Source: an uncultured Erysipelotrichaceae bacterium
GTDB taxonomy: Bacteria > Bacillota_I > Bacilli_A > RFN20 > CAG-826
Direction of reading: 5' to 3'
NCBI GenBank assembly: GCA_902800025.1
Contig: CADCDA010000003.1
Coordinates: 13,154 to 77,153 of the forward strand
Length of the DNA: 64,000 nucleotides
The position numbers and the translations under genes are program-made. Of the stretch, positions 8,773-55,695 are shown in pieces. A model generated the notes under the pieces. It saw only the letters and a program-made list of their open reading frames with translations, was not told the origin of the DNA and made no database searches. Positions within the stretch are counted from its first letter, which is position 1. Each line of letters begins with the position of its first letter.

Positions 8773-8819
8773 CCTCCTTTTCTTTATTAATTGTTTTATA
8801 AACTAGGTTCATATTGTGG

Positions 8820-10844
8820 TTACTCCTTCAAATAGAACTTGCAGCTATAGCCTTCAGCATTAAGGATTAATCCAGAAGCCCAATCAGGCAGTTTTGCCAT
8901 GCTTTTCTCCACAAATTCCGGTGATTTACCGCTGAAATCCTCAATAATAAGCTCGTCATGAACGTGCATTACTATGCGAGAATCTTTGAGAGTTCTCATG
9001 GCAAAGCAGAGAATGTCTCTAGCTGTTCCTTGAATGATGTTTTCAACGAATTTGGGACCATAGCTTTCAATCCTGGTCCACTTCTTTTGCTCGCCAATTC
9101 CTTCATAAGAAATGGATTCGTTTCCGTATTCGTTAATGATGATCTTTGGCTTAACGTATGAGAGCTTTCTACCACTTGGAAGAGTGATAAATAGCATTGA
9201 ACTTTTATAGGTGAAGATAAGATTTCCGAGCTTCTTCTCACAAGAGCATTTTGTTTTTGTTCCTTCTTCAATCACATAGCGGACAGCATCGCCAACTTCC
9301 CACCAAAATTTAGTGATGTTTTTGTTAGCATTTCGCCATGATTTAACTAGAGGAACAAGCTCTTCTTCAGTGAGGCCAGAGCCTTCATCTAAAGCACCCA
9401 TTGCAACTAGTGCTCCAGTGCTTCCACCATATCCAAGAGCAAGCTCGGCGATTTTACCCTTCTTTCTGAGTTCTCCATTAATGCCGTTTTTAACAACAGG
9501 AACGCCGAACATCTTACTTGCGGAAGAGCAATAAATATCTTCGTTATTTTTGAAAGCTTCTATTCTCCAAGTCTCACCTGCATACCAGGCAAGAACACGT
9601 GCTTCAATAGCAGAATAATCGCTTACCAAGAACTGCCCATCTCCTTCTGGGATAAAAGCTGTCCTTAATAGTTGTGATAGAATATCTGGAACATCTTCAT
9701 AGAGCATCTTGAGTGCTTCTACATCTTCTTTAAGAACCAGTTCTCTCACTACCGCTAAATCTGGAAGCTTGTTTTGTGGAAGATTATGAAGCTGAACGAT
9801 ATGGCTAGAAAAGCGGCCTGTTCTATTTGCTCCATAGAATTGGAACATTCCCCTAATTCTTCCATCACTGCAGACAGCTTCTTTCATGCGTTCATACTTC
9901 TTAATTGATGTTTTAGCGAGCATCTTTCTTAAAGCCATCGCAAGTCCAATTTCTGAATCTGCGAATTGCTTTTCTAAAGAAGTTACTGTCTTTTTGCCTA
10001 AATCTTCAGGTTCAACACCATATTTAAGTAGCCATTGTTTAAGCTGAGCGACTGAGTTTGGATTATCTAGCTCTGTGATATCTACCATAAGCTTAGAAAG
10101 CTCTTCGTGGATCACTCCATCGATTTTGATGGCTTTCTCTGCTAAAGCAGTATCTAAGTAAACGCCTCTATCATTGATTTCTTGATCGATGGCGTATTCT
10201 TCCCAGAGCCAGTCTGGAAGCGGATAGTTTTTAAGACGTTGTTGGATAGCAAGCTCCACTTCTACGTCTCTTTTGTTATAACGAAGAAATAAATCGCGTT
10301 TCTCTGGATGATTTTTAAATAAGTTTTTTGTTGCGCCACCATTACTTTTGGTTGGTTTGACTGGACTACAGAAGAATTTGATAAGATCTCGTCCTTCTTC
10401 TAACTTCTGATTCTCTAGCTTGAGAACAGCTCCGACACCTTTTAGAGATAAAGGAAGTCCGAGATAGCTCGCAGCAACCATTGTGCATCGCCAACTACGA
10501 GGATTTAAGAACTTGTTCTTAGGTAGCCCAAGATATCGAGATAAGCAGACTCTTTCAAAGGAAGCATTGTAAGCATGTTTTATACAAGAATCATCATTAA
10601 TAAGTCTTAAGATTTCAGAAGGAATAACTCCTCCTTCTTGTAAATTAACAACTTGAACTTCTCCTTCATTAAGAGAATAGCCGAAGCATAAGATTTCAAA
10701 ACTTGGATCTTCTGAATATCTATATGCCCCGGCTTTATTTAAGTTGACGTCTGAATAAGTCTCGATATCTATCGAAAGATGATTAATCAAGGAAATCTTC
10801 GGTGTCGTCAGTTGCGAAGTCTTTTTCAGCCGAGACTTTACCAC
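8820..10844 (-). CDS. family-A DNA polymerase (phage PolA-like, with 3'-5' exo domain)
   Basis: Exo I IDIETYS. Pol motif A DYSAIEARVLAW, motif B RKKGKIAELALGYGGS and motif C VHDELIIE. The start is ambiguous: GTG at 10844 or TTG at 10790. Confidence 0.85.
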   Translation of the reverse strand: MVKSRLKKTSQLTTPKISLINHLSIDIETYSDVNLNKAGAYRYSEDPSFEILCFGYSLNEGEVQVVNLQEGGVIPSEILRLINDDSCIKHAYNASFERVCLSRYLGLPKNKFLNPRSWRCTMVAASYLGLPLSLKGVGAVLKLENQKLEEGRDLIKFFCSPVKPTKSNGGATKNLFKNHPEKRDLFLRYNKRDVEVELAIQQRLKNYPLPDWLWEEYAIDQEINDRGVYLDTALAEKAIKIDGVIHEELSKLMVDITELDNPNSVAQLKQWLLKYGVEPEDLGKKTVTSLEKQFADSEIGLAMALRKMLAKTSIKKYERMKEAVCSDGRIRGMFQFYGANRTGRFSSHIVQLHNLPQNKLPDLAVVRELVLKEDVEALKMLYEDVPDILSQLLRTAFIPEGDGQFLVSDYSAIEARVLAWYAGETWRIEAFKNNEDIYCSSASKMFGVPVVKNGINGELRKKGKIAELALGYGGSTGALVAMGALDEGSGLTEEELVPLVKSWRNANKNITKFWWEVGDAVRYVIEEGTKTKCSCEKKLGNLIFTYKSSMLFITLPSGRKLSYVKPKIIINEYGNESISYEGIGEQKKWTRIESYGPKFVENIIQGTARDILCFAMRTLKDSRIVMHVHDELIIEDFSGKSPEFVEKSMAKLPDWASGLILNAEGYSCKFYLKE

Positions 10845-11346
10845 CTAAGTGGTCACCATCTGCAAGCTTGAGAACGTTATTGAGTCCAACAGCGATTCCC
10901 TTTGCACCATTTTTGTTATAGGCATAGAAGCTGATTGAGACTTTTCCGTACATTCCTGAGTAGATTTCGCTAGGATCAAGAATTGGGTTTAAAGCGGCAT
11001 CGACAATACCGACAGCACTAATGGAAGACGCATTTAAGAAATAGCTATCTTTATAGGCTGGATCGTCTGCTTTTTCAACATCTCCATCTCTTAATGGGAT
11101 ATGGATTGCTGAGAGAGCTGGTACTGTTTTGCCTGTGCCACGAAGCTTTGCTTCGCCTTCGTTATAGGCGGCTTCAATGGCTTTGTTGATCTTCTCTAAA
11201 GTGACAGTATCACTCTTAGGGATGATGATTGATGTTGAGTATTTTTCTTGACCACCCTCAACGGTAGCCTTCGCTTCTAAAATATTGCAATAAGAGAAAC
11301 GAACTTTTCCGGTAATAACCTTTGTTGGATTTACGACTTTTGTCAT
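10783..11346 (-). CDS. DUF2815-family phage protein (putative ssDNA-binding)
   Basis: N-terminal MTKVVNPTKVITGKVRFSYCNILEAKA resembles DUF2815. The PolA-DUF2815-DUF2800 arrangement is conserved in phage replication modules. Confidence 0.6.
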   Translation of the reverse strand: MTKVVNPTKVITGKVRFSYCNILEAKATVEGGQEKYSTSIIIPKSDTVTLEKINKAIEAAYNEGEAKLRGTGKTVPALSAIHIPLRDGDVEKADDPAYKDSYFLNASSISAVGIVDAALNPILDPSEIYSGMYGKVSISFYAYNKNGAKGIAVGLNNVLKLADGDHLGGKVSAEKDFATDDTEDFLD

Positions 11347-11348
11347 AA

Positions 11349-12326
11349 TTAATTTTCTCCTTCTAAATTGTTTAGTTCTTCCGCAAAGTCAGCTGCGGCA
11401 CTGTTGATTTCCTCTCTTTTATCACTGCGAGGAACGAGTGTTGGTTTGCCTTCTGGTTTAATTACATAGGGAGCCACTATCTCATTGAACTTAACTTTTC
11501 CTAATACTTTCTGGATATCGGTTAAGCTGAGAAGGGTTCTCTTGTAAGGATCAATTCCTTCGGCTTGAAGTGAAGCAACCACTGCTTCTTCATCTTTGAT
11601 GACTCTGTTAGATTTACCAGCAACGAGCTTATGGTTTTTCCAGATCTTACCCTTGATTGCTTCATTAAGGGCATAGTCTTTGATTTGATTAGCCCAGCTA
11701 ACGAGGGAGTCGATTCTGTCTAATACATCTTCAACTTCTTCATCAGTTAATAAAGGCGGTTCTTTTTGCTCATACTTTTCAAGTTCAAGAAGAGAATTCG
11801 ACTTAGCCCTACATGTGCTACGAATTCTACAAAAACGACAATTTTCACCTGGGTGGAATTCTCCCTTTCCTTCATAAGCATCAGCAGCGGCTGGTCTTAC
11901 CACTTCTTCGGCCCATTTGAGCAACTCCTCTTTAGAGATTTCACTAGTTTGGACGTTACCCATTCTTGGTTGGAAGATGCTCATCTTTACTGTCTTAAAG
12001 TCATAAAGGCAGTCAAACATTGATATTGCTCCTAAAGCGTACAATTTGGTTTGCGGATTCCCCTCACATTCCACTAAAACGTTCTTTCCGTATTTGAGAT
12101 CAATTACGTGGATCGTGTCTTTAGATAGAATTAGGGCATCTGCGGTACCAAAACTCTCAGGAACGAATTCTGATATGTCTACCTCCTGTTCGATGAATAG
12201 AACTGCATTTTTGTCATGTTTCTCGGCTTCATTAAGCTTTTCTAAGACAAATGCGACGTAGTCATCGGTATAACCATCCATTTCAGCATTGAAGTATTCG
12301 CTTTTTCTAGGATTAAGGTCTTCCAT
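11349..12326 (-). CDS. DUF2800-family PD-(D/E)xK (Cas4-like) nuclease
   Basis: C-terminal Cys cluster CRFCRIRSTC. A D...E.K-like core sits in the N-terminal half. Position matches its conserved partners. Confidence 0.6.
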   Translation of the reverse strand: MEDLNPRKSEYFNAEMDGYTDDYVAFVLEKLNEAEKHDKNAVLFIEQEVDISEFVPESFGTADALILSKDTIHVIDLKYGKNVLVECEGNPQTKLYALGAISMFDCLYDFKTVKMSIFQPRMGNVQTSEISKEELLKWAEEVVRPAAADAYEGKGEFHPGENCRFCRIRSTCRAKSNSLLELEKYEQKEPPLLTDEEVEDVLDRIDSLVSWANQIKDYALNEAIKGKIWKNHKLVAGKSNRVIKDEEAVVASLQAEGIDPYKRTLLSLTDIQKVLGKVKFNEIVAPYVIKPEGKPTLVPRSDKREEINSAAADFAEELNNLEGEN

Positions 12327-12582
12327 GTTTTCTGGCCTCCAAAGCTTTTATAAGCTTCTCTTCTGATAATGCATGAGCTACGGTGCCTTCCGCTGAAGCA
12401 GTACTATCTTGATCCTCGATAAATTCTGCTAACCTGGCGGAAGGTGTGCAAACTAGCCAAATGTGACTAGAACTTGCAGATAGAAGTGCGTGTCCTTTAG
12501 CTGCCATGTCTAATTTCAGCCGCTTCATCAAGGATCGCTTCCCATTCATCTGGATTAACTTCAGATAAGCGAGAGGCACCAT
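12313..12582 (-). CDS. hypothetical small phage protein (true start possibly internal, near 12507)
   Basis: ORF only. It overlaps the upstream ORF by 86 nt. Confidence 0.3.
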   Translation of the reverse strand: MVPLAYLKLIQMNGKRSLMKRLKLDMAAKGHALLSASSSHIWLVCTPSARLAEFIEDQDSTASAEGTVAHALSEEKLIKALEARKHGRP

Positions 12583-12799
12583 GACGTTTAAGGATTGCTT
12601 TCACTTCTTGTGTTTTCCCATCTCTACTTAGTTCAGCAAGAACAGTTCTTACTTCTTCTAAGGTGATAGGGACTAGCTCGCAGGCTTGTTCTGCCTTTGG
12701 CTCTTCCTCGCTATCAAGGGCTTCGATAAAGAGGTTTAATTCTTTAGCTAACTTGATCGCGAGCTCTTTAACGGTTGTGAAGTCTTTACTTTTTGCCAT
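12497..12799 (-). CDS. hypothetical acidic small phage protein
   Basis: 100-aa ORF in the operon context. Confidence 0.4.
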   Translation of the reverse strand: MAKSKDFTTVKELAIKLAKELNLFIEALDSEEEPKAEQACELVPITLEEVRTVLAELSRDGKTQEVKAILKRHGASRLSEVNPDEWEAILDEAAEIRHGS

Positions 12800-13082
12800 T
12801 TTTTCGGCCCTCCTTTTGAGTTGATACGGAGTTCCTAATGATTTGTTTCGCTCTTGAATCTGCTAAGACGGAGATTAGAGCAAGGGTATCCACCACTTGT
12901 TGGTCTTGCTTAGAGAGAGCTACTTTTGATTTGATCATTTTCGTTTTCTCCTTTGAGGATGCTTCTGTCCTCACTTTCCCCTTTCCGGAAAAAGGTGTTT
13001 TGTCCCAGAAAAAATTCATAAAGTTAAAAACCTCGGCATTTTTCTTGTAAAACCTGGATGATTCGTTTGACTTCTCTATCAA
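12786..13082 (-). CDS. hypothetical small phage protein
   Basis: ORF only. The start may be internal. Confidence 0.3.
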   Translation of the reverse strand: MIEKSNESSRFYKKNAEVFNFMNFFWDKTPFSGKGKVRTEASSKEKTKMIKSKVALSKQDQQVVDTLALISVLADSRAKQIIRNSVSTQKEGRKNGKK

Positions 13083-13629
13083 CTGAGCTTTTAGACATTT
13101 TTAATTCATTAGCTATATCGCGGACAGGTACGCCACGTGACCACATGTCTAAAATCGCCTGTTCCTTTTCATTTAATGAATGGATTTCAGACCACATCTT
13201 CTCTTTGCGTTCTTGATAGTAAATATCGGTAACGAAGTCCTCATCTGAAGCAGGTTCAAATTCATTTCCCTCTTCATCAGTGAGTTCTCCGAATGTTAGC
13301 GGTAATCTTTGTTGAAATTGATCATAGTCAAGCGGACTAGGATTCTTTGATAATTCTGGATCATCTGGATCATATCTAAATGGGCACTTCTCGCAGCTAT
13401 GTTCGCAAACGATAAGTTTTCCTTTTTTGCCTGGTATTAGGCATTTGGTAATTTTTTCATGATATTGTTTTTCTTTATCAATGATGTCCTTAAGCTTCAT
13501 TCCTAGCTCGTAGGAAACATAAATTTTGACACCACCGGTCATTTCAAGAGGAAGATAGTAAGTTCTATCGCTACTCTTCTTGGAGTAATCAACTCCATCA
13601 CATACTAAGTTAATTTTGATCTTTGCCAT
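13024..13629 (-). CDS. sigma-70 region-4/LuxR-type HTH regulator with Cys-rich (zinc-finger-like) centre
   Basis: C-terminal ILDMWSRGVPVRDIANELKMSKSSVDREVKRII is a sigma region 4-type HTH. A CEHSCEKC cluster sits in the centre. It is the first gene of the leftward replication operon. Confidence 0.5.
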   Translation of the reverse strand: MAKIKINLVCDGVDYSKKSSDRTYYLPLEMTGGVKIYVSYELGMKLKDIIDKEKQYHEKITKCLIPGKKGKLIVCEHSCEKCPFRYDPDDPELSKNPSPLDYDQFQQRLPLTFGELTDEEGNEFEPASDEDFVTDIYYQERKEKMWSEIHSLNEKEQAILDMWSRGVPVRDIANELKMSKSSVDREVKRIIQVLQEKCRGF

Positions 13630-13839
13630 GTTCTGGTCTCCTTTTTGTTCGGTTTGGAAACCAGTTCTGGCATCGAGGCAGCACTAAAAGAGCTAAATCG
13701 GAATTACAGGAATGGTTTCCTAGTAGTTCGCTTTCAGCTCTTAATTACTGATTGCTATGTTCGGCTCTGAATATTAAGAATTTGTCGACTAAGACAGAGC
13801 CATTTGTTTCATTTCTCTATAGAGGTTCAATTTGAAGCG

Positions 13840-13992
13840 TTACTTGAGGTTTTGTTCACTATCAAGATCCACTTCGGTTAAGAACTTTTTAATTTCTGAA
13901 ATAATGACACCTAATGTGCGTAACAACTTGATGCTGATTTCGACACCCTTTTGGGCATCGCTGCAGCCTTGAATAAGTTCGTTCTTTTTCAT
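13840..13992 (-). CDS. small 50-aa protein (MKKNELIQGCSDAQKGVEISIKLLRTLGVIISEIKKFLTEVDLDSEQNLK)
   Basis: Not in the ORF track because it is under 60 aa. Strong RBS AAGGAGG about 9 nt upstream of ATG 13992. A clean stop TAA lies at 13842..13840. Confidence 0.4.
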   Translation of the reverse strand: MKKNELIQGCSDAQKGVEISIKLLRTLGVIISEIKKFLTEVDLDSEQNLK

Positions 13993-14032
13993 GCTTCTTC
14001 GCCTCCTTTCCGTTTGCATTTGCGGCAGGGAA

Positions 14033-14094
14033 ACAAAAAAGCGCCTAACAAATACAAACTAATAGCTGTTCATCGTTAGGCGTTCCTTCTAGGC
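14033..14094 (-). terminator. terminator-like hairpin (GCGCCTAAC ... GTTAGGCGC followed by T-run on minus strand)
   Basis: Inverted repeat at 14041-14049 / 14085-14092 with a 35-nt loop. The A-run at 14035-14040 on plus gives the T-run on minus. The loop is large, so this is a weak call. Confidence 0.3.
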
Positions 14095-14430
14095 TATTGC
14101 CTATTCTACGTCTGTCATAAATAGTCCTTGTTCTGCCGAGCAGAAGTCTCTATCTGTAGCTTGTTTGTATTTGTTAAACGCTTCACTAATTGTGGATTGT
14201 CCAACAAATCGATATCATAGCTCGATTGCATTTTTTGCATTCAAGCACCGCTATTGTATAGTATTTGTCGTGTTTTTTCTAGTTTTATCGGTTTTAAGTC
14301 ATTTGAGTTTCCTCCGTTTTACCCAGACTTCGCTGAGCTTTTCTGACTACATTGTCGCCCATCGTTTTTATTAAAAATAGGGAAAACAGCACCCCTAATA
14401 ACCGATAATGGGTACCCACTTTTTTGCATT

Positions 14431-14457
14431 AAAAAAAGCCAGATAAAATCTGGCTTT
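14431..14457 (-). terminator. rho-independent terminator of the defence-like operon
   Basis: AAAGCCAGAT-aaa-ATCTGGCTTT is a perfect 10-bp stem. It is followed on the minus strand by TTTTTTT, 20 nt downstream of the stop at 14478. Confidence 0.75.
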
Positions 14458-14477
14458 ATGGCATCATTTTCACGAAC

Positions 14478-16244
14478 CTAATCTTGATAATTTTTCACGA
14501 AACCATAACGTCCGTTGTTAGGATCTTTCGTGAATTCTATTCTATTAACTCCTTCGTAATCTATGTCAGGAATATCGTTTTCGATTGCGATGATTTGCAT
14601 GTCCCTAGCGCACTCCTTCAAATAGGTGAATAAGGCTTTCTTTATTTGATCCGGAAGCTCTTCATTTCTCTTTTCTCTTAGTGACAAGATAGGAGAATCG
14701 ACTAGAAGCAATCCAGGCTTATAGTATCCTCTTTCTATCAAAACCTGCTGAAGAGCCAGTGCAAGTATCGTGTTGTAAAAACCCTTGAAGCCTTCGCCTT
14801 CATATTTCTTTTCGCTGCCGTTGATTTTAATATCAAAGTCACCATAGACGAAATCGATTTCATTTTCCCTGCCATTACATCTATCAATGCCGGCTTTCGC
14901 CTTAGTCACAAGGAAGCCAGAAAGAAGTGATTCAATGTATTCTCTAGGATTGTATTTCGTAATTTCGACCTTTATCTTCTCGACCTTCTTATGCTCTTCG
15001 ATTGCATCATTAAGGTTTTGGACGGCATTATTGTACTCAGCTTCGGAAACAACCGCGGTCTGATAGCTGTTAATCTTACTTTGAAGCTGCTTGACTAACG
15101 GCTTTAACTCATGATTGATCTCGGCATCAATAGCTTTCTTTTTGCCGACCAATTCGGAAACTTTCTCTTTTAGAGAAGCAAGCTCATCTTCGATAGCTTT
15201 TTTCGCTTCTTTCAAATCCTTTATTTGAGGTACAAGCTTCTTGAGCTCTGCTTCTGCAGCTTCTTCGCACGTCTCCTCTTCTTCTTTCTCAAGCTTGCCA
15301 TTGCAGAATGGACATCTTTGAGGCTCTTCGACATCCGAGGAATGAGCCTTTCCATCGACAATAAGCTCCATCCTTCTTAAATCCGATTCGTATTGGCTAA
15401 GGAGCGTGTTGTATTTTTCTATGAAGTTGTTAAGTTCAGCGATTCTATCGTTCAGGCCGATGATTTGGTTGGAGAGGCCTTTGCTCTCTTCGATCTTCTT
15501 GTTAAGCTCTTCATTCACTTCGTTGAGCCTTCTGATAAGCTCATCGATATCCTTTTTGAATTGCTCAGGCTCGCCAATCTTGAACCCTTCGTATGATTTC
15601 AACTTCTCAGTAAGCTTATCAACTTGCTCTTTCAGGTATTTTTCGAGCGCTTTCTTTCTGGCGGCTTTTTCAATAGGATTGCCTTCAGGATCTATGTGAT
15701 TGTCCCTGGACAAAAGGTAGATTAATGCCGATTTGAACGAAGTCGCGCTTGTGTTCTGCTCTGGGGCGAGGATACTTTCTTCTTTGCTTACATCGTTTTC
15801 TTTAATTACAAAAGTATGGGAGAACGTTCTGAAAGTTAGATTGTTCTTTTCCCAATTCTCGTTCTTAAGGATCTCCACTCTCTCGGTAAAGCCGATAAGC
15901 CTTAGCAATACATCGCTGTAGCTCATCCCATTTTCGTCTTTTTGCTTATATTCTCTGCATTCCAAACCTTGGATGTTCGTTTCTACAACCACAAGAGTCT
16001 TCTTGCCTATGGACCTAAGCAAAACAGCATATCCATCGTCGCATTCCACTCTCGCTTTGATCTCTTTTGCGTTGAAGTGCGGATTGACTTCTTTCTTTGC
16101 GCCGAAGATGAAATCGATGCAATCCAAAATGACGGACTTACCAGTATTAGATGGGCCATAAACAACGTTAAATCCATCGTCAAAGCTCACAGCAGACACT
16201 TCATCATTGTTCTGAATAAGCTGTATTTCTTTAATTCTTAACAT
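14478..16244 (-). CDS. SMC/Rad50-like ABC ATPase with central coiled coil and CxxC hook (LmuB / ABC-3C-ATPase-like)
   Basis: N-terminal MLRIKEIQLIQN...VVYGPSNTGKSVILDCIDFIFG is a Walker A. A long K/E/L-rich heptad region holds the CPFCNGK hook. The C-terminal part carries degenerate signature and Walker B sequences: EGEGFKGFYNTIL ... GLLLVDSPILSL ... IIAIEND. Confidence 0.7.
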   Translation of the reverse strand: MLRIKEIQLIQNNDEVSAVSFDDGFNVVYGPSNTGKSVILDCIDFIFGAKKEVNPHFNAKEIKARVECDDGYAVLLRSIGKKTLVVVETNIQGLECREYKQKDENGMSYSDVLLRLIGFTERVEILKNENWEKNNLTFRTFSHTFVIKENDVSKEESILAPEQNTSATSFKSALIYLLSRDNHIDPEGNPIEKAARKKALEKYLKEQVDKLTEKLKSYEGFKIGEPEQFKKDIDELIRRLNEVNEELNKKIEESKGLSNQIIGLNDRIAELNNFIEKYNTLLSQYESDLRRMELIVDGKAHSSDVEEPQRCPFCNGKLEKEEEETCEEAAEAELKKLVPQIKDLKEAKKAIEDELASLKEKVSELVGKKKAIDAEINHELKPLVKQLQSKINSYQTAVVSEAEYNNAVQNLNDAIEEHKKVEKIKVEITKYNPREYIESLLSGFLVTKAKAGIDRCNGRENEIDFVYGDFDIKINGSEKKYEGEGFKGFYNTILALALQQVLIERGYYKPGLLLVDSPILSLREKRNEELPDQIKKALFTYLKECARDMQIIAIENDIPDIDYEGVNRIEFTKDPNNGRYGFVKNYQD

Positions 16245-16686
16245 TGGTAAATCCTCCTCTTTTCACTAAGTCGGCCATGAATTTTCGAACGCTTTCATCT
16301 TTTTGAAGATCGTACTTCTCAAACGCTCCTTCTGCTGTCGACATATAATTTTCGCCGTACACATTGTCGAGCGAATCTATAAAGTTAATGCCATTATCAT
16401 TGATTTGGTACTTGAAACCATTATCTTGCGTCACATCGACAAGTCCTCTAGTAACCAATTCCTTAATCGCCATATCCACAAGTTCTTTTCTTGAGGCAAT
16501 TTCTCCAAACTTATAAGCACTATCGCCATGGAGATTGGACTCAGAAACCCCATAGTCCTTCCCATAACAGCAGATAAAGTCATAGCAGACAAATTGGTAT
16601 TTATCCATCTTGTCGAAAGGGCAATTGATGAGAAGCATCAATATCCTCAGTTGCATTTCAAATGGCGTGTTGAAAAATCTATTCAT
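16231..16686 (-). CDS. small hypothetical protein (candidate middle component / LmuC-like)
   Basis: The ATG at 16686 overlaps the upstream TAG (ATGAATAG), which indicates coupling. The 151-aa protein overlaps the ATPase start by 14 nt. No known motif. Confidence 0.5.
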   Translation of the reverse strand: MNRFFNTPFEMQLRILMLLINCPFDKMDKYQFVCYDFICCYGKDYGVSESNLHGDSAYKFGEIASRKELVDMAIKELVTRGLVDVTQDNGFKYQINDNGINFIDSLDNVYGENYMSTAEGAFEKYDLQKDESVRKFMADLVKRGGFTNVKN

Positions 16687-17695
16687 CCAGTTTCTCCTCC
16701 ACCCATTTGATTTTTTCATCATTAACTAGCATGTGGGTGATTCCTTTTCTCTCTTGGGTTTTGATCCATCCAGGGAGATGCATGAGAACGCTATTAAGAG
16801 GAATAAACGTCACCCTTTCCATTATTGCGTTCATTTTTTCTTTTCCAGAAGCATAGCTTTTGTTGCATGTGTCTTCTAGACCAGTGAAAATTTCGCTCTT
16901 TAGCTCATCGAAAAAATGATAGCCATAGGTTTCAGTGTCCCTAAGGCCAACTCTTATTGATTCGGCAGCGTAATAGTAGCCGCGTTGTTTGTTAAAATCA
17001 TCGAGACACGCGGTATCTGAAACAAGGTCGCTCTTCTTCACGAAGATAACATGTGCGGCCTCAGAGTAAACCTTTAGAAGCTCTTTGACGTAGTTTAATT
17101 CTTCGTCTTTAATATCATCTGGTGTCACGATGGCGACTGGGTGCTCCCTGCTATTGAGAATATCAATGATATCGTTCGTAGTGAGATTGTTATCGCCTAG
17201 TGATCTGTTTGCTTTTTTAGCCACAGGATTTGTTTTGTTGTCTGCGACAATCGCAAGCATGAAAACCTCTCTGAAGAAAAGCTTGTCTTCATTCCCTTTG
17301 TTGGCATTATAAAGCCCATTGACATAGCGCCTCTTTGCTATATCGATTTCTTCATCTGATTGCACCAATTCGTTTAATTCTTTGAAAATATATCGATTTT
17401 GCAGACTATTTGTCACGATTCTGTTCAAAAGCAACATTGAAATGCTTCCGTCTTTGTCGTGGCCGTTGAAGTATCTAGTCATTCCTGCCCTCAACAATGG
17501 ATAAACATCTTCGTTACCCTTATAAAGCGATCCGCACATTTTCGGAGTAAGACGGTATTGCTTATGTGATCTATCCCTGATATCCGCCTTTTTGATAGGA
17601 TCCTCCAATAAACCTTTCACCAAAAAAGTCATTTGCTTCTTTTTAGCAAATTTAGTGATTACCTTTAAAAATGATGAGAAGGTTAAGACGGCCAT
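16679..17695 (-). CDS. hypothetical 338-aa protein (candidate effector of the ATPase triad; no recognisable catalytic motif)
   Basis: The ATG at 17695 is 1 nt after the upstream TAA. No nuclease, SIR2, TIR, HEPN or Cap4 motif could be recognised by eye. Confidence 0.5.
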   Translation of the reverse strand: MAVLTFSSFLKVITKFAKKKQMTFLVKGLLEDPIKKADIRDRSHKQYRLTPKMCGSLYKGNEDVYPLLRAGMTRYFNGHDKDGSISMLLLNRIVTNSLQNRYIFKELNELVQSDEEIDIAKRRYVNGLYNANKGNEDKLFFREVFMLAIVADNKTNPVAKKANRSLGDNNLTTNDIIDILNSREHPVAIVTPDDIKDEELNYVKELLKVYSEAAHVIFVKKSDLVSDTACLDDFNKQRGYYYAAESIRVGLRDTETYGYHFFDELKSEIFTGLEDTCNKSYASGKEKMNAIMERVTFIPLNSVLMHLPGWIKTQERKGITHMLVNDEKIKWVEEKLDE

Positions 17696-17696
17696 A

Positions 17697-18392
17697 TTAT
17701 TCTTCGTTATCCTCTTTTTCCTTCTTGCGATAGACGTTTATTGGATTTCCGTCTTTATCTCTCCAGCAATTCCAGCCGTTGTCATTGTGACCTGAGATCA
17801 TTGCCGCGGCTTGGGAAACGGACGAGCACACAACATCTTCTTGTAAGATTGATCCTTTGAGCGGTAAGGACATCCTAAAAGGGACCCACGAGAATATTGA
17901 TGGAGTTTTTTCAGATAAAGGAGCACAAGTAGAATCTTTTTTAAGTGTTAGAACACCATTAGCAACGGCTAAAACACCAGAATAAGTATTTCTATCTGCC
18001 TTTGATTTAACTTGATAATAATACTCTCCATCAGGAAGCGATGAACTTTCTACCGCTTCTGTGGCTTGCTCAAACACCTCTTTCTTATCTTCTTCTGGAT
18101 ACACCACTCTTCCGTCGAGAGAAGAAAGGAGCTGACGAACCATATTGACGTCCAAAGAGAACATTTCGGTATCGCCTACTCTACTCTTGGAGAAAATTTC
18201 ATGAAGCAGAACTTCTTTTTCATCGTAGTTGTCAAGTTCTATTGCGAAGTTTCTTTTTAATCCGCTGACATTTCTATAACCATTACTTTCAAGGAATCTC
18301 ATTCTTTCCTCGAAATTGTCTGTTTTGGTTTTTCCTATTTTGACTAAGCCGCTAACAACGGTTGTCATCAAATAAATAATTCCTTTCGCCAT
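17697..18392 (-). CDS. T5orf172 (GIY-YIG superfamily) domain protein with C-terminal DUF4357-like region
   Basis: N-terminal GIIYLMTTVVSGLVKIGKTKTDNFEERMRFL matches the T5orf172 pattern (YxL..........KIGxT....R). A conserved E..LH (EVLLHEIF) follows. Confidence 0.55.
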   Translation of the reverse strand: MAKGIIYLMTTVVSGLVKIGKTKTDNFEERMRFLESNGYRNVSGLKRNFAIELDNYDEKEVLLHEIFSKSRVGDTEMFSLDVNMVRQLLSSLDGRVVYPEEDKKEVFEQATEAVESSSLPDGEYYYQVKSKADRNTYSGVLAVANGVLTLKKDSTCAPLSEKTPSIFSWVPFRMSLPLKGSILQEDVVCSSVSQAAAMISGHNDNGWNCWRDKDGNPINVYRKKEKEDNEE

Positions 18393-18406
18393 TCTCTATT
18401 CCTCCT

Positions 18407-21400
18407 TTATTTCAGCTTCCAATTAAAGAAGAAATCAGAAACAAACACATCTCTGTTGGCATACAAGATCTTGTTGATCTCTTTTTTGGAAACACCAAGA
18501 ATGTCTGCGATCTTTCCAGATTTCATTCCTTTGCCCGATTCTCTTAAAACTTTTACTATTTGATCTTTCAAAGAGAGAGGTTCTTCTTCAACTATCGCTT
18601 TTGGCTTAGCTACTACCTTTGGAGAGCTGAATTCAATAGCTTCATCTAGTAGCCTAGAGTCAAAACCAAATGCTTTGTATCCCTCAGAAACTCGTTCAAC
18701 ATATTCATCAGAAGGTCTTCCGAGTTTTCTATCCTCGTGCATAATGTAAACGAATGCTTCGATTTGGCTGAATGATCCATCATCAGCCTTAAGTTCAACT
18801 TTTATATCTTTTTTATAGTAGAAAGCAGGGTATCCTTCGTATCTATCTAGCGATGCTTCGTCATTTTCATTAACGACGAAAACACCAACAGGAACAGCAT
18901 ATCCGTTAGCCCTCTCGATTGTGAGGTAGTTTCCAGAGGAACTTCCCTTAAACATCAAGCGATAGTCATGGATAACTGATGTCCCTACTTTCCTTGCGGT
19001 TGGGCATCTGCTGGACATTTGTTCCAAATTGAGATTGCTGCCATAAGCCAAATAATAGCGAATTGGTTTCTGTGGTTTTTCTTCCACCACTAGTTCTGGT
19101 TCTTCTTCAGCAGGCTTTTCCACAGCATTTACAGGTTCCTCAACAGGTTTGCTTGAAACAAACGTTCTCGAAATTCTTGTTTGTTCTGGAGCTTCAGTAT
19201 GTGTTTCGCCTTCAATTCCAAATTCAAACCAATCAAAGCTGTTTCTATAGTTCTTTCTTACTTCTTCATTTGATAAATCTAAAGTAGATCCAATTGATTC
19301 GTTTTCAAAGAATTCTCTAATGAAGCCATTAAGGATATCTTCTTTGAAGATGTGATACTTGTTGAGAACCTCAAAGTCCTTCTTAGTGATACCGACAGCT
19401 TCTAAGAACCTATCCGGATCTGCATTCTTAAAGATTTCATCAAATGTCGTTTCTCTATAAACAGAAATATATAGGAATTCAAATAAACGAGCCAAGATGT
19501 GCTGCATGACGTTATCTGCATCTTGGATAGAAGTGTCATCGGCGTTTTTGATTACAGGTACCAAGGCTTTCTTTACTGCTTTTCTAAATGAATCACAGTA
19601 CCAGCGCTTGTAGATCTTTCCCCTATATTCCTGAGGAATGTTGTTTATGTCATTAAGATAGGCAACAACAAAGTTCTCTATCTTTTGCTTTGTTTCAGTT
19701 GTATATGTAATTTTTTCGCCGAAATGTTCTCTTACTTTGTCGACAAACTTAAGACCATCGGCTTTGCCGCATTGGAGCTTCTTAATAGGAGCGTTGACGC
19801 CTTGTTCATAGCCTTTCTTGAAGCCATTAATAAAGTATTTCTTATGGAGCTCATCTAAATCTGAAGGAATGTTTTCTTTGATGTGCTTTTCTTCGTTTGC
19901 ATCGTATTGTTCTTGGACTTCATTATCATCTAAATCAAGGTAAAGCTTACTATCAGCCATACCTAAGGCATAGCCTTTATCTCTTCCTTCTAAAGTAACC
20001 TTATCCTTAAAACTTGCATCATCTGGTTTAGGAGGGACGTCTCTATCCTTGGATTTTCCAAATTTTGCATGTGCAAAGACATGTTTAATAATGTCGCTAA
20101 CCTCCTCGTCATTGAGCATAGCGGCGATTGTATCTTCATCTTGGATCCAGGTCGTATTTTTGGTGTCCCTGATTTTCTTTGAAAGCGGCTTTCCTCTGCT
20201 ATCACCAAACTCAGCAAGCTTGAAGAATGTATCTTCGCCAATTGGGTGTTCCATGTCGCCATCCATGAAAATAGGTAAGTACTTAACGATCAGTCTAGCG
20301 ACTTGCATCTTCGTATATGCATTTTCCTTAGATGATTCTTCGGCATATTTTAAAAGAAGCGAAGCTGCTCTATCTATGTTGAAATCATATACATAACCAT
20401 CAGTTTTGAGGATCTTTCCGTTTTCAACCAATGGTGTCTGAATTCTAAATATCGCCTGGAAATATGATTCAGGGCTAGCTAAGTCCTTCAAAACGAAAAC
20501 ACTAAACCACTTCTTAACCGTGACACCTATAGTTAGCTTATTAACAGTGATTGAAATGCTGCCGATTTTACCGGTGTTTTCTCCAGCGGTCATGCTTTCA
20601 TTTAAAAATGTAAGGGCGTTTGTACCACTACCAACGTTCCTATCGGATAGATTGATGATCTGGTATCTAGAGAAATAATCATCTTCTTGAAGCAACTTTG
20701 CCATCGCATAGCATGAGTTGACAGTTGGCATGAGCCAAATCGTATGTTTGCTGTTAGGTGTAAGTTTTGGATTAGAATATGGGAAATTCTTTCCGTGCAT
20801 TGAAGCGCCTTTTATAATTTCAAGCCAAAGTTTAATCTCATCCTCATAAAGGAATTGGTATCCAAAGGCTTCGTCGTAATCTTTCCTCGTCTCAAAGAAT
20901 TTGTTCAAGGAAAAATAACTTCTTCCCAATACCTTATCATCCGAAACCACCGAATTGGCTAGCCCAGGGAACAAAGACTTCATGTCATAACCGAAGATGC
21001 TCATATCTGGGAATTGGGCATAATCTTTATTCGGGGTCCAATCGTCGTTCTCACTATTAGGATATTTCCTCTTTTGCTCATCAAAGTATGAATATGTGCT
21101 TGATGTTTTATCTGTAAATTCGCCTCTTGCTAAAGCTCTGAAAGGAGTTCCTGAGAGACAGATTGTTTTCTTTGTTTTGATTTCGAATTTCTTAACGACA
21201 TCCTTCGTGTCTTTGAGGTTTTTCTGATAGTCCTTATCAAGGTCCTCGAAAGTATCCTGAGTTCTAGCATTCCAGGCTCCAAAATGGTATTCATCGAGAA
21301 CCACCAAATCCCAATCAACATCTTGAAGCTTTTTGATTTTGTCTTTTGTTGTTTGGCTTTGGCTGTCTTTGCCTAAGTAGTTCTGCAACGATAAAAACAC

Positions 21401-22186
21401 AACGAAAGGCTCAGTCTTACCTTTTAAGGTAAAATCATTCCTTCTGATGTTGTCGTCGGTATAGTACTTATATACCTTATTTATATGAAGCAAGTCATCC
21501 TGCCATGATTTCTCAACTGCTGGGATGAATGTCAAAATTAAAATCTTATTGATATTGTTGTCTTCTGCAAACTTATAGGTCGTATAGCATTTTCCGAACC
21601 TCATTTTGCAGTTGAGAAGGAATCTTCCTCCTACTGGATGTTTGTCAAAATATGCAACTAAATCATCTATCGCTTTTTGCTGCTCAGCTCTAGGAGTATA
21701 AACAACTCTGCTGCTTCCGCTTTTTCTGATCTCGTTGAAAATAGAAATCAATTCATCAGGATGGATGTTGACAAACCACTCCTGCTCTTTTTCTTGAATT
21801 CCTGCGTACTTAGCTTTGATCTCGGCATGAACGCGATAATCTTTGAAGGATTCGCTATTGGTGTCTAAGCAGATGCCCCAATAGATGACTTCTCTGATGT
21901 CACCATAGCCTTTAGCAAATTGATCATCGGTCAAAGCTAATTCATGTTGTTGATCCTTAATTCTAGATTTGATTGCATGCCAAAAGGTCTCTCCCATTTT
22001 GCACTTGGTCATGCCTACCTTGACTCCATGATAAACGAAGTTAGGAAGTTGGTACATATAAATCAAGATCAAGTCTTGATCGGTTGTGTTTTTGTCATCC
22101 AGTTGGAAAAGAACGTCCTTTCCACTGAATCTGACTGTATCCTCAGAATTTATATTCTGGCCACGTTGGATTACTACTTCGCTCAT
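18407..22186 (-). CDS. multidomain 1259-aa protein: N-terminal T5orf172/GIY-YIG-like + SF2 (ResIII-type, DEYH) helicase + gamma-glutamylcyclotransferase (GGCT/AIG2)-like domain + C-terminal HTH
   Basis: N-terminal LILIYMYQLPNFVYHGVKVGMTK matches a T5orf172 core. Helicase motif I-like LNCKMRFGKCYT, motif II VVLDEYHF, motif III ICLSGTP and motif VI-like FQAIFRIQT. The GGCT-like segment is IRYYLAYGSNLNLEQM...IEAFVY. The C-terminal HTH is GKIADILGVSKKEINKIL. Confidence 0.7.
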   Translation of the reverse strand: MSEVVIQRGQNINSEDTVRFSGKDVLFQLDDKNTTDQDLILIYMYQLPNFVYHGVKVGMTKCKMGETFWHAIKSRIKDQQHELALTDDQFAKGYGDIREVIYWGICLDTNSESFKDYRVHAEIKAKYAGIQEKEQEWFVNIHPDELISIFNEIRKSGSSRVVYTPRAEQQKAIDDLVAYFDKHPVGGRFLLNCKMRFGKCYTTYKFAEDNNINKILILTFIPAVEKSWQDDLLHINKVYKYYTDDNIRRNDFTLKGKTEPFVVFLSLQNYLGKDSQSQTTKDKIKKLQDVDWDLVVLDEYHFGAWNARTQDTFEDLDKDYQKNLKDTKDVVKKFEIKTKKTICLSGTPFRALARGEFTDKTSSTYSYFDEQKRKYPNSENDDWTPNKDYAQFPDMSIFGYDMKSLFPGLANSVVSDDKVLGRSYFSLNKFFETRKDYDEAFGYQFLYEDEIKLWLEIIKGASMHGKNFPYSNPKLTPNSKHTIWLMPTVNSCYAMAKLLQEDDYFSRYQIINLSDRNVGSGTNALTFLNESMTAGENTGKIGSISITVNKLTIGVTVKKWFSVFVLKDLASPESYFQAIFRIQTPLVENGKILKTDGYVYDFNIDRAASLLLKYAEESSKENAYTKMQVARLIVKYLPIFMDGDMEHPIGEDTFFKLAEFGDSRGKPLSKKIRDTKNTTWIQDEDTIAAMLNDEEVSDIIKHVFAHAKFGKSKDRDVPPKPDDASFKDKVTLEGRDKGYALGMADSKLYLDLDDNEVQEQYDANEEKHIKENIPSDLDELHKKYFINGFKKGYEQGVNAPIKKLQCGKADGLKFVDKVREHFGEKITYTTETKQKIENFVVAYLNDINNIPQEYRGKIYKRWYCDSFRKAVKKALVPVIKNADDTSIQDADNVMQHILARLFEFLYISVYRETTFDEIFKNADPDRFLEAVGITKKDFEVLNKYHIFKEDILNGFIREFFENESIGSTLDLSNEEVRKNYRNSFDWFEFGIEGETHTEAPEQTRISRTFVSSKPVEEPVNAVEKPAEEEPELVVEEKPQKPIRYYLAYGSNLNLEQMSSRCPTARKVGTSVIHDYRLMFKGSSSGNYLTIERANGYAVPVGVFVVNENDEASLDRYEGYPAFYYKKDIKVELKADDGSFSQIEAFVYIMHEDRKLGRPSDEYVERVSEGYKAFGFDSRLLDEAIEFSSPKVVAKPKAIVEEEPLSLKDQIVKVLRESGKGMKSGKIADILGVSKKEINKILYANRDVFVSDFFFNWKLK

Positions 22187-22187
22187 A

Positions 22188-23855
22188 TCAAATCATCTCT
22201 CTAATTAAGGATTCGATATCCTTTATCTCAGTTTCGTCAAGGCCATACATTTCATAGAGTTCCTTGTCGCTCCACGATTTTTCATAAGTCAAATTCGGGA
22301 CAAATTTAAAATTATCTTTTGTAATATGCATAGAACTTAAGGTCAATAAAACTAAATATCTAGCAAATTTTGTCTTAATATACGATGCATAATTATTTGC
22401 CTCTTGTTCCGTGTCAAAAGCACCAAGTAATAAATAAGTAGCTGTAAACGCTTCCCCTGGTTTGTAAATTTTTATTTTTGTTGTGACATTAGACATACCA
22501 TCGCTAGCGTTATTAACACCTCCTCTATCAGGGTTTAACTGACCGATAGAAACTTTATATTTATCGATAATATCTGCTCCTTTTGGGAGGGAATCTTTTT
22601 TAATATAGAATTCGCCAGCACTAGCAATAACCTTTATTGAATTATCAAAAGGTTTTTCTTCACCTCTTGTATTGGTTGGAAGCCCAAATGGGGATATCGG
22701 ATAAACTAGCCTGTCAAGGAATACTTTTGTTTTAGCCCTTATTTTGTCAATAATTCCAATTCCGATATTGCTTCGTATAAATACATCGAAATCATTGAGT
22801 AGTCGATTCTTTGATGTTGTTTTTCCACCGACGCTACTGACGACTTGACATTTTCCTTGATGTTCAGAATCCCACAAGAAATAGCAAACGCCTCCAGCTA
22901 TATCAACGTTTGGAAAGCAGTCTCTGCTCTTTGGAAAATCAACCAATAAAGCCATTCTCTTATCATTCAGCATCTTCTCTCTGAATAAATCCATTCCCAT
23001 TCCGCCAGTAAACCATCTCGAAGGAATAATCATTGAAATATACTTCGGAGATAACGAGATAGCTTGTTCAACAAATTTGTGATAGATAGGCGTTGCCTGA
23101 ATTCCTGAGTCGTTTGTACTCAATTGATATGGTGGGTTGCCTATTATAATGTCGAATTTCATATTCTTATCTCCTTTAAAAAACCTATTTCTTAAATGTC
23201 TTTCTATAACCAAATGGTTAACATGCATAAATTCATAAGCATATTGTTCTCTTTGGTTCGCATCTAAATATTTTGAATCGTGTGCCACGCCACAATACTT
23301 GCATTTCTTTGTTTTCGGATCTATTTCATGGCTTGTATTTGGAGTTTTAATGTTCCCCTCGGTATCTGAAAACCATGTTCCGTTTCCTATGGCATATCCA
23401 TTAACAAAGTGACCGTCTGGAGCTTTTATTCCGTCACATGCTCTATTCGCTTCTGAACAATAATAAACGGTTCTTCTGGCTACATTAGCAGTGAACTTAG
23501 TTAGTCCAATAGAAAAGACCATATTTTGTAAAATGTGTTTTCTTCTTGTTTCTTTATCAGGAATAACATCTTTTAATCCTTCGTCAAGCCTAATAGCAAT
23601 TTCACGTTCAAAAATACCATTTTTTGTTGCAGGATTTAGCCACTTATAATTTGGATTATGCCAAACTTCATCAGGCAAAGAGTCAAGCATCATATCAGCA
23701 GTTTTTCTAGGTGTGAAAACTTCGTCATTGCCGACGTTTGTAATAGTTTCAAGAATGTCGAAGTGCTCTATATAATCGCTAGCTTCTTCTACAGCTGTAT
23801 TGTATTTCTTCTCAGCGCTTAGGCCTTCGCTGGTCTTTTTATCTTCATCTACCAT
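22188..23855 (-). CDS. gamma-class N6-adenine DNA methyltransferase (Eco57I/TaqI-like, NPPY) with Cys4 insertion
   Basis: Motif X DEVFTPRKTADMMLD, motif I-like WLNPATKNGIF and motif IV FDIIIGNPPYQ. It carries a CSEANRACDG...CKYCGVAHD zinc-ribbon-like insert and a long C-terminal putative target-recognition region. Confidence 0.8.
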   Translation of the reverse strand: MVDEDKKTSEGLSAEKKYNTAVEEASDYIEHFDILETITNVGNDEVFTPRKTADMMLDSLPDEVWHNPNYKWLNPATKNGIFEREIAIRLDEGLKDVIPDKETRRKHILQNMVFSIGLTKFTANVARRTVYYCSEANRACDGIKAPDGHFVNGYAIGNGTWFSDTEGNIKTPNTSHEIDPKTKKCKYCGVAHDSKYLDANQREQYAYEFMHVNHLVIERHLRNRFFKGDKNMKFDIIIGNPPYQLSTNDSGIQATPIYHKFVEQAISLSPKYISMIIPSRWFTGGMGMDLFREKMLNDKRMALLVDFPKSRDCFPNVDIAGGVCYFLWDSEHQGKCQVVSSVGGKTTSKNRLLNDFDVFIRSNIGIGIIDKIRAKTKVFLDRLVYPISPFGLPTNTRGEEKPFDNSIKVIASAGEFYIKKDSLPKGADIIDKYKVSIGQLNPDRGGVNNASDGMSNVTTKIKIYKPGEAFTATYLLLGAFDTEQEANNYASYIKTKFARYLVLLTLSSMHITKDNFKFVPNLTYEKSWSDKELYEMYGLDETEIKDIESLIREMI

Positions 23856-24490
23856 AGATCCACTCCTTCCTCGTGAACATTTATTTCATTTTCACTTATT
23901 TCCCATACCGGCATATCAAGCGGCTTCAAATTCCCTTTTTCTGCCTCAGGCATCTTATAGGCCACGTCTATTCCTAAAAGCAATCCTTCATCACTTTGAG
24001 TGTTTGACATTGCCCACATGAAGTTTCTCACAATAATGCATCTAAGAATATCGAAGTAGGAAGTATCGACTTGAATTTTGTTTTCAACAATAAAGTGCTT
24101 CACTAAAGTGAATATATTATTTCTTTGCTTTTCAATTAATTCTTCATCCATTTCTATAGAGTAGATAGTAGATAAAGCTCTGAGTGATTCAATTTCAAAA
24201 TTCTTAGTTATCTTCTCAAGACGCTTTTGGAGAATGTATGTAGTAAACGCACCATCACCAGAGGTTGGTTCGAGGACGGTTTTTGAAGAATCAAAAATAT
24301 CAGGACCTATGGCTTGACACATATCTTTGACAATGAAATCGGGAGTAAAAATTTGATAACCCTCAGTATCATTATGGCCCATAGAGGCAAGTTGAATAGT
24401 TTCAAAAGCTTCAATTAAGTCAAAAGCTTTAATCTGTTCTTTTTTAAATTCAGCCTTTATTTGATTAACATAATTTGAAAAATCAATCAT
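23849..24490 (-). CDS. truncated methyltransferase paralog (SAM-binding motifs X, I, II only; no NPPY)
   Basis: YQIFTPDFIVKDMCQAI plus VLEPTSGDGAF plus IYSIEMDEEL match the N-terminus of TaqI-like methyltransferases. Neither NPPY nor DPPY is present. It is translationally coupled on both sides. Confidence 0.5.
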   Translation of the reverse strand: MIDFSNYVNQIKAEFKKEQIKAFDLIEAFETIQLASMGHNDTEGYQIFTPDFIVKDMCQAIGPDIFDSSKTVLEPTSGDGAFTTYILQKRLEKITKNFEIESLRALSTIYSIEMDEELIEKQRNNIFTLVKHFIVENKIQVDTSYFDILRCIIVRNFMWAMSNTQSDEGLLLGIDVAYKMPEAEKGNLKPLDMPVWEISENEINVHEEGVDLW

Positions 24491-55691: not shown

Positions 55692-55695
55692 CATC

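Follow-up and report, generated by a model that had tools for sequence, protein, structure and literature searches.

Short Lamassu systems are built around an SMC/Rad50-like ATPase, LmuB, that averages ~600 aa, has a Walker B motif of the form hhhhD[Q/S/T/E] and carries 0-2 zinc hooks (bioRxiv 10.1101/2025.04.02.646746), and their solved representatives include LmuACB of Salmonella enterica and DdmABC of Vibrio cholerae. Activation through induced oligomerisation is common to the Lamassu, Thoeris and STAND chassis (bioRxiv 10.1101/2025.03.14.643221; PMC11204291), and in solved structures the linker of the LmuA protein rearranges upon activation (bioRxiv 10.1101/2025.04.02.646746). Here we describe a three-gene operon in a 64,000-nucleotide stretch of DNA from an uncultured Erysipelotrichaceae bacterium (contig CADCDA010000003.1; the whole stretch is called the window below). 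Its family matches identify it as a short, type II Lamassu in the order lmuA-lmuC-lmuB, of a sub-family that is 'N-dom / CTD6 / MC2' in the CTD/MC naming of Li et al. (bioRxiv 10.1101/2025.03.14.643221), N-dom being the N-terminal domain of LmuA. The operon itself adds no new concept to Lamassu, as it is found by existing tools and the peculiarities of its ATPase are family norms; the interest lies in N-dom, a compact, confidently folded module found in the weapon position of four or more immune chassis that differ in mechanism but all work by induced oligomerisation.

Running the PADLOC models on the triad gave a match for each protein: LmuB to PDLC03867 (E 6.8e-149, 495 bits, residues 4-587), LmuC to PDLC03875 (E 4.2e-43) and LmuA, the product of the first gene, to PDLC03857 (E 2.8e-45, residues 4-334 on model positions 1-325 of 327). 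Pfam places LmuC in the middle-component family MC2 (PF20288; E 8.6e-36) and the C-terminal half of LmuA in the C-terminal-domain family CTD6 (PF20282; E 3.4e-34, residues 199-331). LmuB has the features of a short-Lamassu ATPase, namely a Gx4GK[ST] Walker A, a coiled coil, a CxxC hook, an hhhhD[Q/S/T/E] Walker B and a length of ~600 aa, and it is accompanied by a small LmuC of an MC family and an LmuA with a family-specific CTD in a conserved three-gene operon. Apart from a few truncated contigs, the ~30 genome-derived loci (L001-L008 and L012-L040) have their genes in the A-C-B order, and the full A-C-B triad is present in 31/31 IMG/VR viral contigs. Judged from the sequences, this three-gene arrangement is far beyond chance, and the triad is almost certainly a Lamassu (ABC-3C) system.

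A first-pass annotation, made from the DNA letters alone, had proposed such a Lamassu/ABC-3C triad, with the LmuA-type gene first, in preference to a RecN or SbcC paralog, and both the identification and the role of the first gene hold. Its description of the two partners as motif-less is true by eye alone, both having the clear Pfam and PADLOC matches just given, and the 338-aa LmuA, which it called unrecognisable, has a CTD6 domain and follows a PADLOC model over its full length; existing family models cover each component, and PADLOC has one for the LmuA family. The LmuB motifs that it had pointed out (GPSNTGKS, CPFC and LLLVDSP) are confirmed at residue level, with CPFC mid-way in a long charged helical stretch, but the supposedly degenerate Walker B is the hhhhD-S form normal for the family, Salmonella LmuB having FLILDQP at the aligned position. 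A housekeeping SMC, RecN or SbcC paralog with ordinary partners would agree with weak NCBIfam matches of the ATPase to SMC, Rad50 and RecN models, but these matches score 19-55 bits against cut-offs of 300-1000 (recN 25.9 against 407.85, Rad50 27.2 against 700 and SMC 29.4 against 729.4), far from what the LmuB model yields. The partner proteins are members of MC2 and CTD6, and the genes lie in prophage cargo near methyltransferases and another defence candidate. We regard the housekeeping interpretation as refuted by the sub-threshold NCBIfam scores together with the PADLOC and Pfam matches of all three proteins, and leave it next to no chance.

The N-terminal domain of LmuA has no such family. 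Pfam gave no match on LmuA residues 1-195 even at E 10, and none of the recognised LmuA effectors (Cap4, Mrr, PDDEXK, Sir2, lipase, protease/hydrolase, FMO, HNH, SMEK or amidase) was found at the LmuA N-terminus. AlphaFold2 modelled full-length LmuA with a mean predicted local distance difference test (pLDDT) of 83, and N-dom, from a 42-sequence alignment, as a confident 8-helix bundle (pLDDT 94.2, predicted template-modelling score 0.88). When profiles of the full-length and N-dom alignments were run against the PDB, they returned nothing, or chance matches at E >= 0.1, and N-dom had no match in the BFVD viral structure set; neither the PDB nor the viral structure sets contain a convincing fold match. 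In the Lamassu, Thoeris and STAND literature searched we found no description of the domain, which is also absent from Pfam (2025 copy) and the PDB. DefenseFinder has a 'Lamassu-Hypothetical' subtype, a term for which the literature searched gave no text and on which nothing here depends. Across 127 family members the conserved positions of N-dom are overwhelmingly hydrophobic. The sole polar position conserved in more than 90% is N153 (93%), directly after the last helix, and D114 (76%) and K/R122 (83%) stand at a helix start in the model, in a capping-like placement. No conserved residue is catalytic in look, and nothing in N-dom points to an active site. The family is acidic (median isoelectric point 5.3), the window copy being basic (9.6), and it has no transmembrane-like segment, with a median best 19-residue Kyte-Doolittle score of 0.94.

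To follow N-dom beyond this operon, its profile was searched exhaustively against 1.84 billion cluster representatives at a threshold of E <= 1e-3, which recovered 256 representatives, 83 of them at E <= 1e-10; a word-indexed homologue search with the same profile gave only four fragments, and the exhaustive search is the informative one. In 149 of the 150 representatives listed the domain starts no later than residue ~25, the exception being the repetitive protein P0078. Fusion partners were counted in 123 full-length N-dom proteins scanned against Pfam. Lamassu C-terminal domains of three families dominate, with CTD6 in 73, CTD11 in 23 and CTD10 in three; the Thoeris ThsA Macro domain occurs in six, DUF2806 / Abi_alpha in four, and NACHT, NB-ARC or nSTAND NTPases, with TPR, WD40, pentapeptide or SNaCT14 C-termini, in about eight. 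No Pfam family covers N-dom in any protein with listed matches, nor does one among the 25 most frequent families. The STAND fusions are unmatched by PADLOC models.

Two of the Macro fusions, P0141 and P0129, are followed immediately downstream by a ThsB TIR gene and form two-gene Thoeris-like operons (L009 and L010). They match ThsA_Macro PF20016 at 3.9e-34 and 2.7e-29 and the PADLOC ThsA models at 8.1e-59 and 1.4e-49, respectively, and both have the Macro sensor domain and the adjacent ThsB TIR gene of type II Thoeris. In alignments of the Macro fusions with the PADLOC ThsA models, the first ~45-65 model positions are not covered, and N-dom therefore takes the place of the models' N-terminal part. 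In the described TM-macro ThsA that part is a transmembrane module, and SIR2-SLOG and TM-macro are the only ThsA variants that the same paper describes (PMC11204291). By sequence, the N-dom-Macro + TIR operons thus look like a type II-like Thoeris variant in which a soluble helical domain would replace the transmembrane effector. Both operons (L009 3178-4843 and L010 4001-5647) lie beside DUF4417 and toxin-domain genes (Ntox50 or YwqJ-deaminase), and the one in L010 also lies beside a type IV secretion system coupling protein.

Within Lamassu, the CTD11 form P0050 has an ABC-3C operon of its own, with MC7 and a DUF2326 ATPase, adjoining a sigma/DUF2800/single-stranded DNA-binding protein (SSB)/PolA module. 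LmuA proteins that join N-dom to CTD11 (~400 aa; P0045, P0050, P0068 and others; L011 5001-6263) carry in their middle an HNH-like zinc finger, CxxC...N..LCxxC, in which the first catalytic His has mostly given way to K, N, Q or R; a few, such as P0148, look canonical. These proteins may represent the 'HNH' short-Lamassu class and may be largely inactive as nucleases. The window LmuA has no such insert. Two observations concern other CTD6 proteins. One CTD6 LmuA (L030 4300-5376) has the N-terminal motif 'GDKGRD...YYQCK', reminiscent of Mrr/PD-(D/E)xK nucleases, with no Pfam match at E 0.01; if the nuclease motif is true, CTD6 can pair with a nuclease in the slot that N-dom uses. The CTD6 LmuAs of L008, L022, L027, L035 and other loci have unannotated N-termini of ~170 aa that share 'IYNG(K/S)..(I/L)P', resembling 'G..DIP..IK.A' of N-dom; their hhalign probability against N-dom is 16%, and they are either very divergent N-doms or unrelated.

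Several roles for N-dom were considered and set aside. Replacement of the ThsA transmembrane module raised the idea of a membrane-active domain, against which stand the absence of a hydrophobic segment and the acidic median isoelectric point of the family. General nucleic-acid binding was raised by the basic window copy; against it stands the acidity of the family as a whole. SMEK, which is counted among the nuclease domains in the short-pAgo literature (PMC10810196), is rejected as the effector type, as no Pfam family, SMEK included, matches N-dom.

Our best overall explanation, to which we assign a probability of about 55%, is a Lamassu abortive-infection operon on a Heliusvirales-like phage, with an N-dom effector that would be switched on by proximity and is probably non-enzymatic. 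On the model of the homologous systems solved from Salmonella and Vibrio, a single LmuA would be held via CTD6 by two LmuB protomers together with LmuC; LmuB would recognise DNA ends or aberrant DNA of an incoming element, and ATP-driven head engagement would release LmuA, which would then oligomerise through its CTD and bring the N-terminal domains together. The effect would be exerted by the clustered N-doms, a step suggested by the architectural distribution of the domain. That distribution is also the basis on which we consider N-dom probably an effector, the main argument being that the N-termini of LmuA, ThsA and STAND proteins are all effector positions of oligomerising chassis. More tentatively, N-dom may act without enzymatic activity, through the capture or sequestration of a target in the cell or the phage, or as the building block of a toxic oligomer, modes that appear the most likely ones because the domain looks non-enzymatic. 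It is a similarly tentative proposal that N-dom represents a previously undescribed class of non-enzymatic, oligomerisation-triggered effector, a cassette exchanged among Lamassu (three CTD families), Thoeris ThsA-Macro, NLR-like STAND and DUF2806 proteins, which would stop cell or phage through the binding or sequestration of a conserved target, without degrading anything. The suggestion of a new effector family in the first-pass annotation is right in part and in a narrower sense: the LmuA family was already in a defence catalogue, but its N-dom is an uncharacterised domain that behaves as a mobile module of the effector slot in several immune chassis.

Several points weigh against the proximity-activated effector. 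We found no reported activity, toxicity or defence phenotype for this sub-family in the literature, and a soluble, acidic helical bundle without conserved catalytic residues is an unusual 'weapon'. A short-Lamassu clade that has seemingly lost its effector domain exists (bioRxiv 10.1101/2025.04.02.646746), and effector-less operation is therefore conceivable; in the N-dom + CTD11 relatives, activity could reside in the zinc finger and not in N-dom. In a Foldseek search of the PDB with the full-length LmuA model the top matches were the LmuA chains of 9hr5, 9hqx, 9ny5 and 9uxl, and they were weak (E 0.24-4), a signal evidently owed to the C-terminal domain of the model. Sequence profiles run against the PDB gave no match of the window LmuA or LmuC to the solved proteins. 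As the likeness of CTD6 to the solved CTD is weak in structure, with Foldseek E-values of 0.24-1.6, and has no sequence match behind it, the mechanism of sequestration and tetramerisation is extrapolated to this operon.

If the N-terminal domain were instead an adaptor, a module of the effector-associated-domain (EAD) or Death-like type recruiting a separately encoded effector, the gene abutting lmuA, which encodes the T5orf172/GIY-YIG-like PDC-S57 protein, would be one candidate. N-dom has the appearance of most EADs in being a small, all-helical domain (eight helices over ~150 aa) without enzymatic features, and in the window, as in L001-L003, lmuA has a T5orf172 gene as its neighbour. EADs are, however, recognised by a further copy, mostly encoded in a neighbouring gene, that is joined to an enzymatic effector (PMC7159879), and a profile search over six-frame open reading frames (ORFs) found exactly one N-dom ORF per locus in the 64-kb window and in all fetched loci, the apparent second copy in L047 being one frameshifted gene. 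An adaptor is disfavoured because none of these loci has a second N-dom copy. The 123 scanned proteins include no strong enzymatic fusion, and their two weak HNH matches (E about 2e-4) are ascribed to the degenerate zinc finger. The T5orf172 gene is absent beside the triad in L004-L006, L007 and L011 and is therefore not an obligate partner, and the two-gene TIR + N-dom-Macro operons have no conserved third gene for an effector. We consider an adaptor unlikely.

It is quite unlikely, in our estimation, that the system works without an effector, the LmuB/LmuC/LmuA complex itself acting on invader DNA by end capping, clamping or a replication block, with N-dom in a regulatory or structural role. 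The missing catalytic signature in LmuA would agree with this, as would the reported clade of short Lamassu without an LmuA effector domain and the binding of DNA ends by LmuACB complexes (bioRxiv 10.1101/2025.04.02.646746; bioRxiv 10.1101/2025.03.14.643221). A Lamassu-specific regulator is nevertheless hard to square with an N-dom that is also N-terminal on sensors free of SMC proteins (ThsA Macro, NACHT/NB-ARC and DUF2806), and in the solved complexes the LmuA N-terminal domain has no visible contacts to LmuB or LmuC (bioRxiv 10.1101/2025.03.14.643221). The same structural work provides the precedent for a cryptic enzyme, as the active site of the LmuA Cap4 nuclease forms only between protomers of the tetramer (bioRxiv 10.1101/2025.03.14.643221): N-dom could be, for example, a nuclease or an enzyme that degrades nucleotides, its non-canonical active site assembling only upon oligomerisation, and the nearly invariant N153 and the semi-conserved D114 and K/R122 might contribute to that site. 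Against this, conservation rises above 90% at just one polar position, the placement of the conserved polar residues at helix termini fits capping roles, and no Pfam family is similar in sequence, which together make an enzyme very unlikely. Knowledge of what N-dom does would fill a 'hypothetical effector' gap in Lamassu and explain both the non-membrane Thoeris variant and several NLR-like proteins.

The coordinates of the operon and its features are collected in the table. The three ORFs, all of minus-strand orientation, are where the first-pass annotation had put them, and it had also described the genes as coupled by overlaps. The overlaps are real, 8 nt between lmuA and lmuC (ATGAATAG) and 14 nt between lmuC and lmuB, but the middle gene differs from the one mechanically called (16231-16722, 163 aa). 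The true start of lmuC is probably the ATG at 16686 and the called start at 16722 wrong, because a GGAGGAG ribosome-binding site lies 7 nt upstream of that ATG, because the resulting 8-nt overlap also occurs at homologous loci, and because public gene calls on contigs with an identical protein (L044-L046) use the same 151-aa start.

Table. Position of the Lamassu genes, domains and motifs in the window
Feature	Position	Strand	Basis
lmuA, 338 aa; N-terminal helical domain, linker and CTD6	16679..17695	-	ORF; PADLOC LmuA PDLC03857; AlphaFold2 model
LmuA N-terminal domain (N-dom, residues 1-155), 8-helix bundle in the effector slot	17231..17695	-	
LmuA inter-domain linker (residues 156-196), low model confidence	17108..17230	-	pLDDT 61-71 over residues ~151-190
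LmuA C-terminal domain CTD6 (residues 197-331), presumed sequestration/oligomerisation domain	16703..17107	-	Pfam PF20282
lmuC, 151 aa (corrected start), ABC-3C middle component MC2	16231..16686	-	Pfam PF20288; PADLOC LmuC PDLC03875
lmuB, 588 aa, short SMC/Rad50-like ABC ATPase	14478..16244	-	PADLOC LmuB PDLC03867
LmuB Walker A GPSNTGKS (residues 30-37; catalytic Lys K36)	16134..16157	-	sequence; aligns to GASRTGKS of 9hqu
LmuB CxxC zinc-hook motif CPFC (residues 311-314), coiled-coil apex	15303..15314	-	sequence; aligns to CPMC of 9hqu
LmuB Walker B LLLVDSP (residues 512-518; D516-S517)	14691..14711	-	sequence; aligns to FLILDQP of 9hqu
Terminator-like hairpin, 10-bp stem then T-run, 21 nt past the lmuB stop	14435..14457	-	consensus scan only

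The first 24.5 kb of the window (GC content ~0.40) is a phage replication module with genes for a ParB-methyltransferase, an SNF2-type helicase, a primase-helicase, a family A polymerase, an Enc34-type SSB and a DUF2800 exonuclease. The Lamassu operon lies upstream of this module, together with two methyltransferase genes, a 1259-aa fusion protein and the PDC-S57 candidate defence gene. An operon beside a DUF2800 exonuclease / Enc34 SSB / PolA / primase module is seen in the window, L001, L004, L011 and L044, and the pairing of triad and replication module recurs in metagenomic and genomic loci of diverse Bacillota. Relatives of the triad also occur in the complete Ca. Heliusvirales phage genomes PV036421 and PV036419 from human faeces; a megablast of window positions 8800-22200 against phage GenBank records gave no match. 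The recurrent replication-module neighbourhood, the Heliusvirales genomes and the 31 IMG/VR contigs identify the operon, at the level of gene content, as defence cargo that Heliusvirales-like temperate phages carry at a conserved site, and the locus documents that defence-cargo site for gut prophages of this kind. Near 24.5 kb the GC content drops from ~0.40 to ~0.33, and DnaE-like and PolA-like polymerase genes at 52659-58299 (+) are chromosomal in look; these changes probably mark the junction of prophage and host near 24.5-25.1 kb, which would put the defence cargo at the end of the prophage.

The gene abutting the lmuA start (17697-18392, minus strand) encodes a 231-aa protein that matches the PADLOC candidate PDC-S57 (8.7e-89), with a T5orf172/MUG113 GIY-YIG-like N-terminus and a DUF4357 C-terminus, and its stop lies one base ahead of the lmuA start. 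The 1259-aa fusion (18407-22186, minus strand) has a T5orf172-like motif at its N-terminus, a match of residues 180-587 to the PADLOC type IIG restriction endonuclease/methyltransferase model (7e-26) and, towards its C-terminus, a gamma-glutamyl cyclotransferase domain (Pfam GGACT 3.4e-11; phrog_2520 4.8e-47; PDB 2pn7 1e-3) followed by a weak Z-alpha-like winged helix-turn-helix. Ahead of it stand a 555-aa Eco57I-type methyltransferase (22188-23855) and a 213-aa methyltransferase-like gene (23849-24490). This block of methyltransferases and fusion recurs in L001 and L044 and appears to be an unusual restriction-like module with a GGACT domain. In L001, which comes from a Bacilli metagenome-assembled genome, a flanking gene (1-1312) encodes a 639-aa EF-G-like GTPase (GTP_EFTU, EFG_III/IV/C), whose size and architecture we take to be those of Tet(M)/Tet(W)-type ribosomal protection proteins.

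Set beside the solved systems (9hqu/9hqx/9hr5, 9ny5 and 9uxl), the operon has, like DdmABC and LmuACB, three genes that fill the same functional roles. Its LmuB is likewise ~600 aa long, with a coiled coil, a CxxC hook, a Walker A motif and a Walker B of the D-[Q/S] type; its LmuC is small, its LmuA consists of an N-terminal module, a linker and a C-terminal domain, and a mobile element or prophage carries the genes in each case. LmuB aligns to Salmonella LmuB (9hqu) weakly (E 0.0067) but colinearly, with Walker A, CxxC and Walker B in register. The solved systems are of the Cap4-nuclease / CTD7 / MC3 type, whereas that of the window has CTD6 and MC2, and where their LmuA carries a Cap4 nuclease the window LmuA begins with a helical bundle without a known effector signature. 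The ABC-3C families of Pfam, which match LmuC and the LmuA C-terminal domain directly and strongly, contain no model for that bundle. Comparison with EADs and bacterial Death-like domains (Kaur et al. 2020, PMC7159879) sets N-dom apart by the lack of a paired copy on an enzymatic effector and of a Pfam EAD match; in structure comparison it does not have the six-helix Death fold of ~90 residues, being a bundle of eight helices over ~150. It resembles these domains in being small, helical, apparently non-enzymatic and fused at the termini of immune core components. The Macro-fused relatives of the window protein resemble type II Thoeris ThsA in their TIR neighbour and in placing N-dom where the cell-killing transmembrane module would be, from which N-dom differs in being soluble, acidic and free of transmembrane-like segments. 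Unlike Lamassu, the STAND relatives are single-protein systems without an SMC component, and they are built like the bacterial NLR-like proteins (bNACHT/Avs), with N-dom in the N-terminal effector position followed by NACHT/NB-ARC and TPR, WD40, pentapeptide or SNaCT14 sensors.

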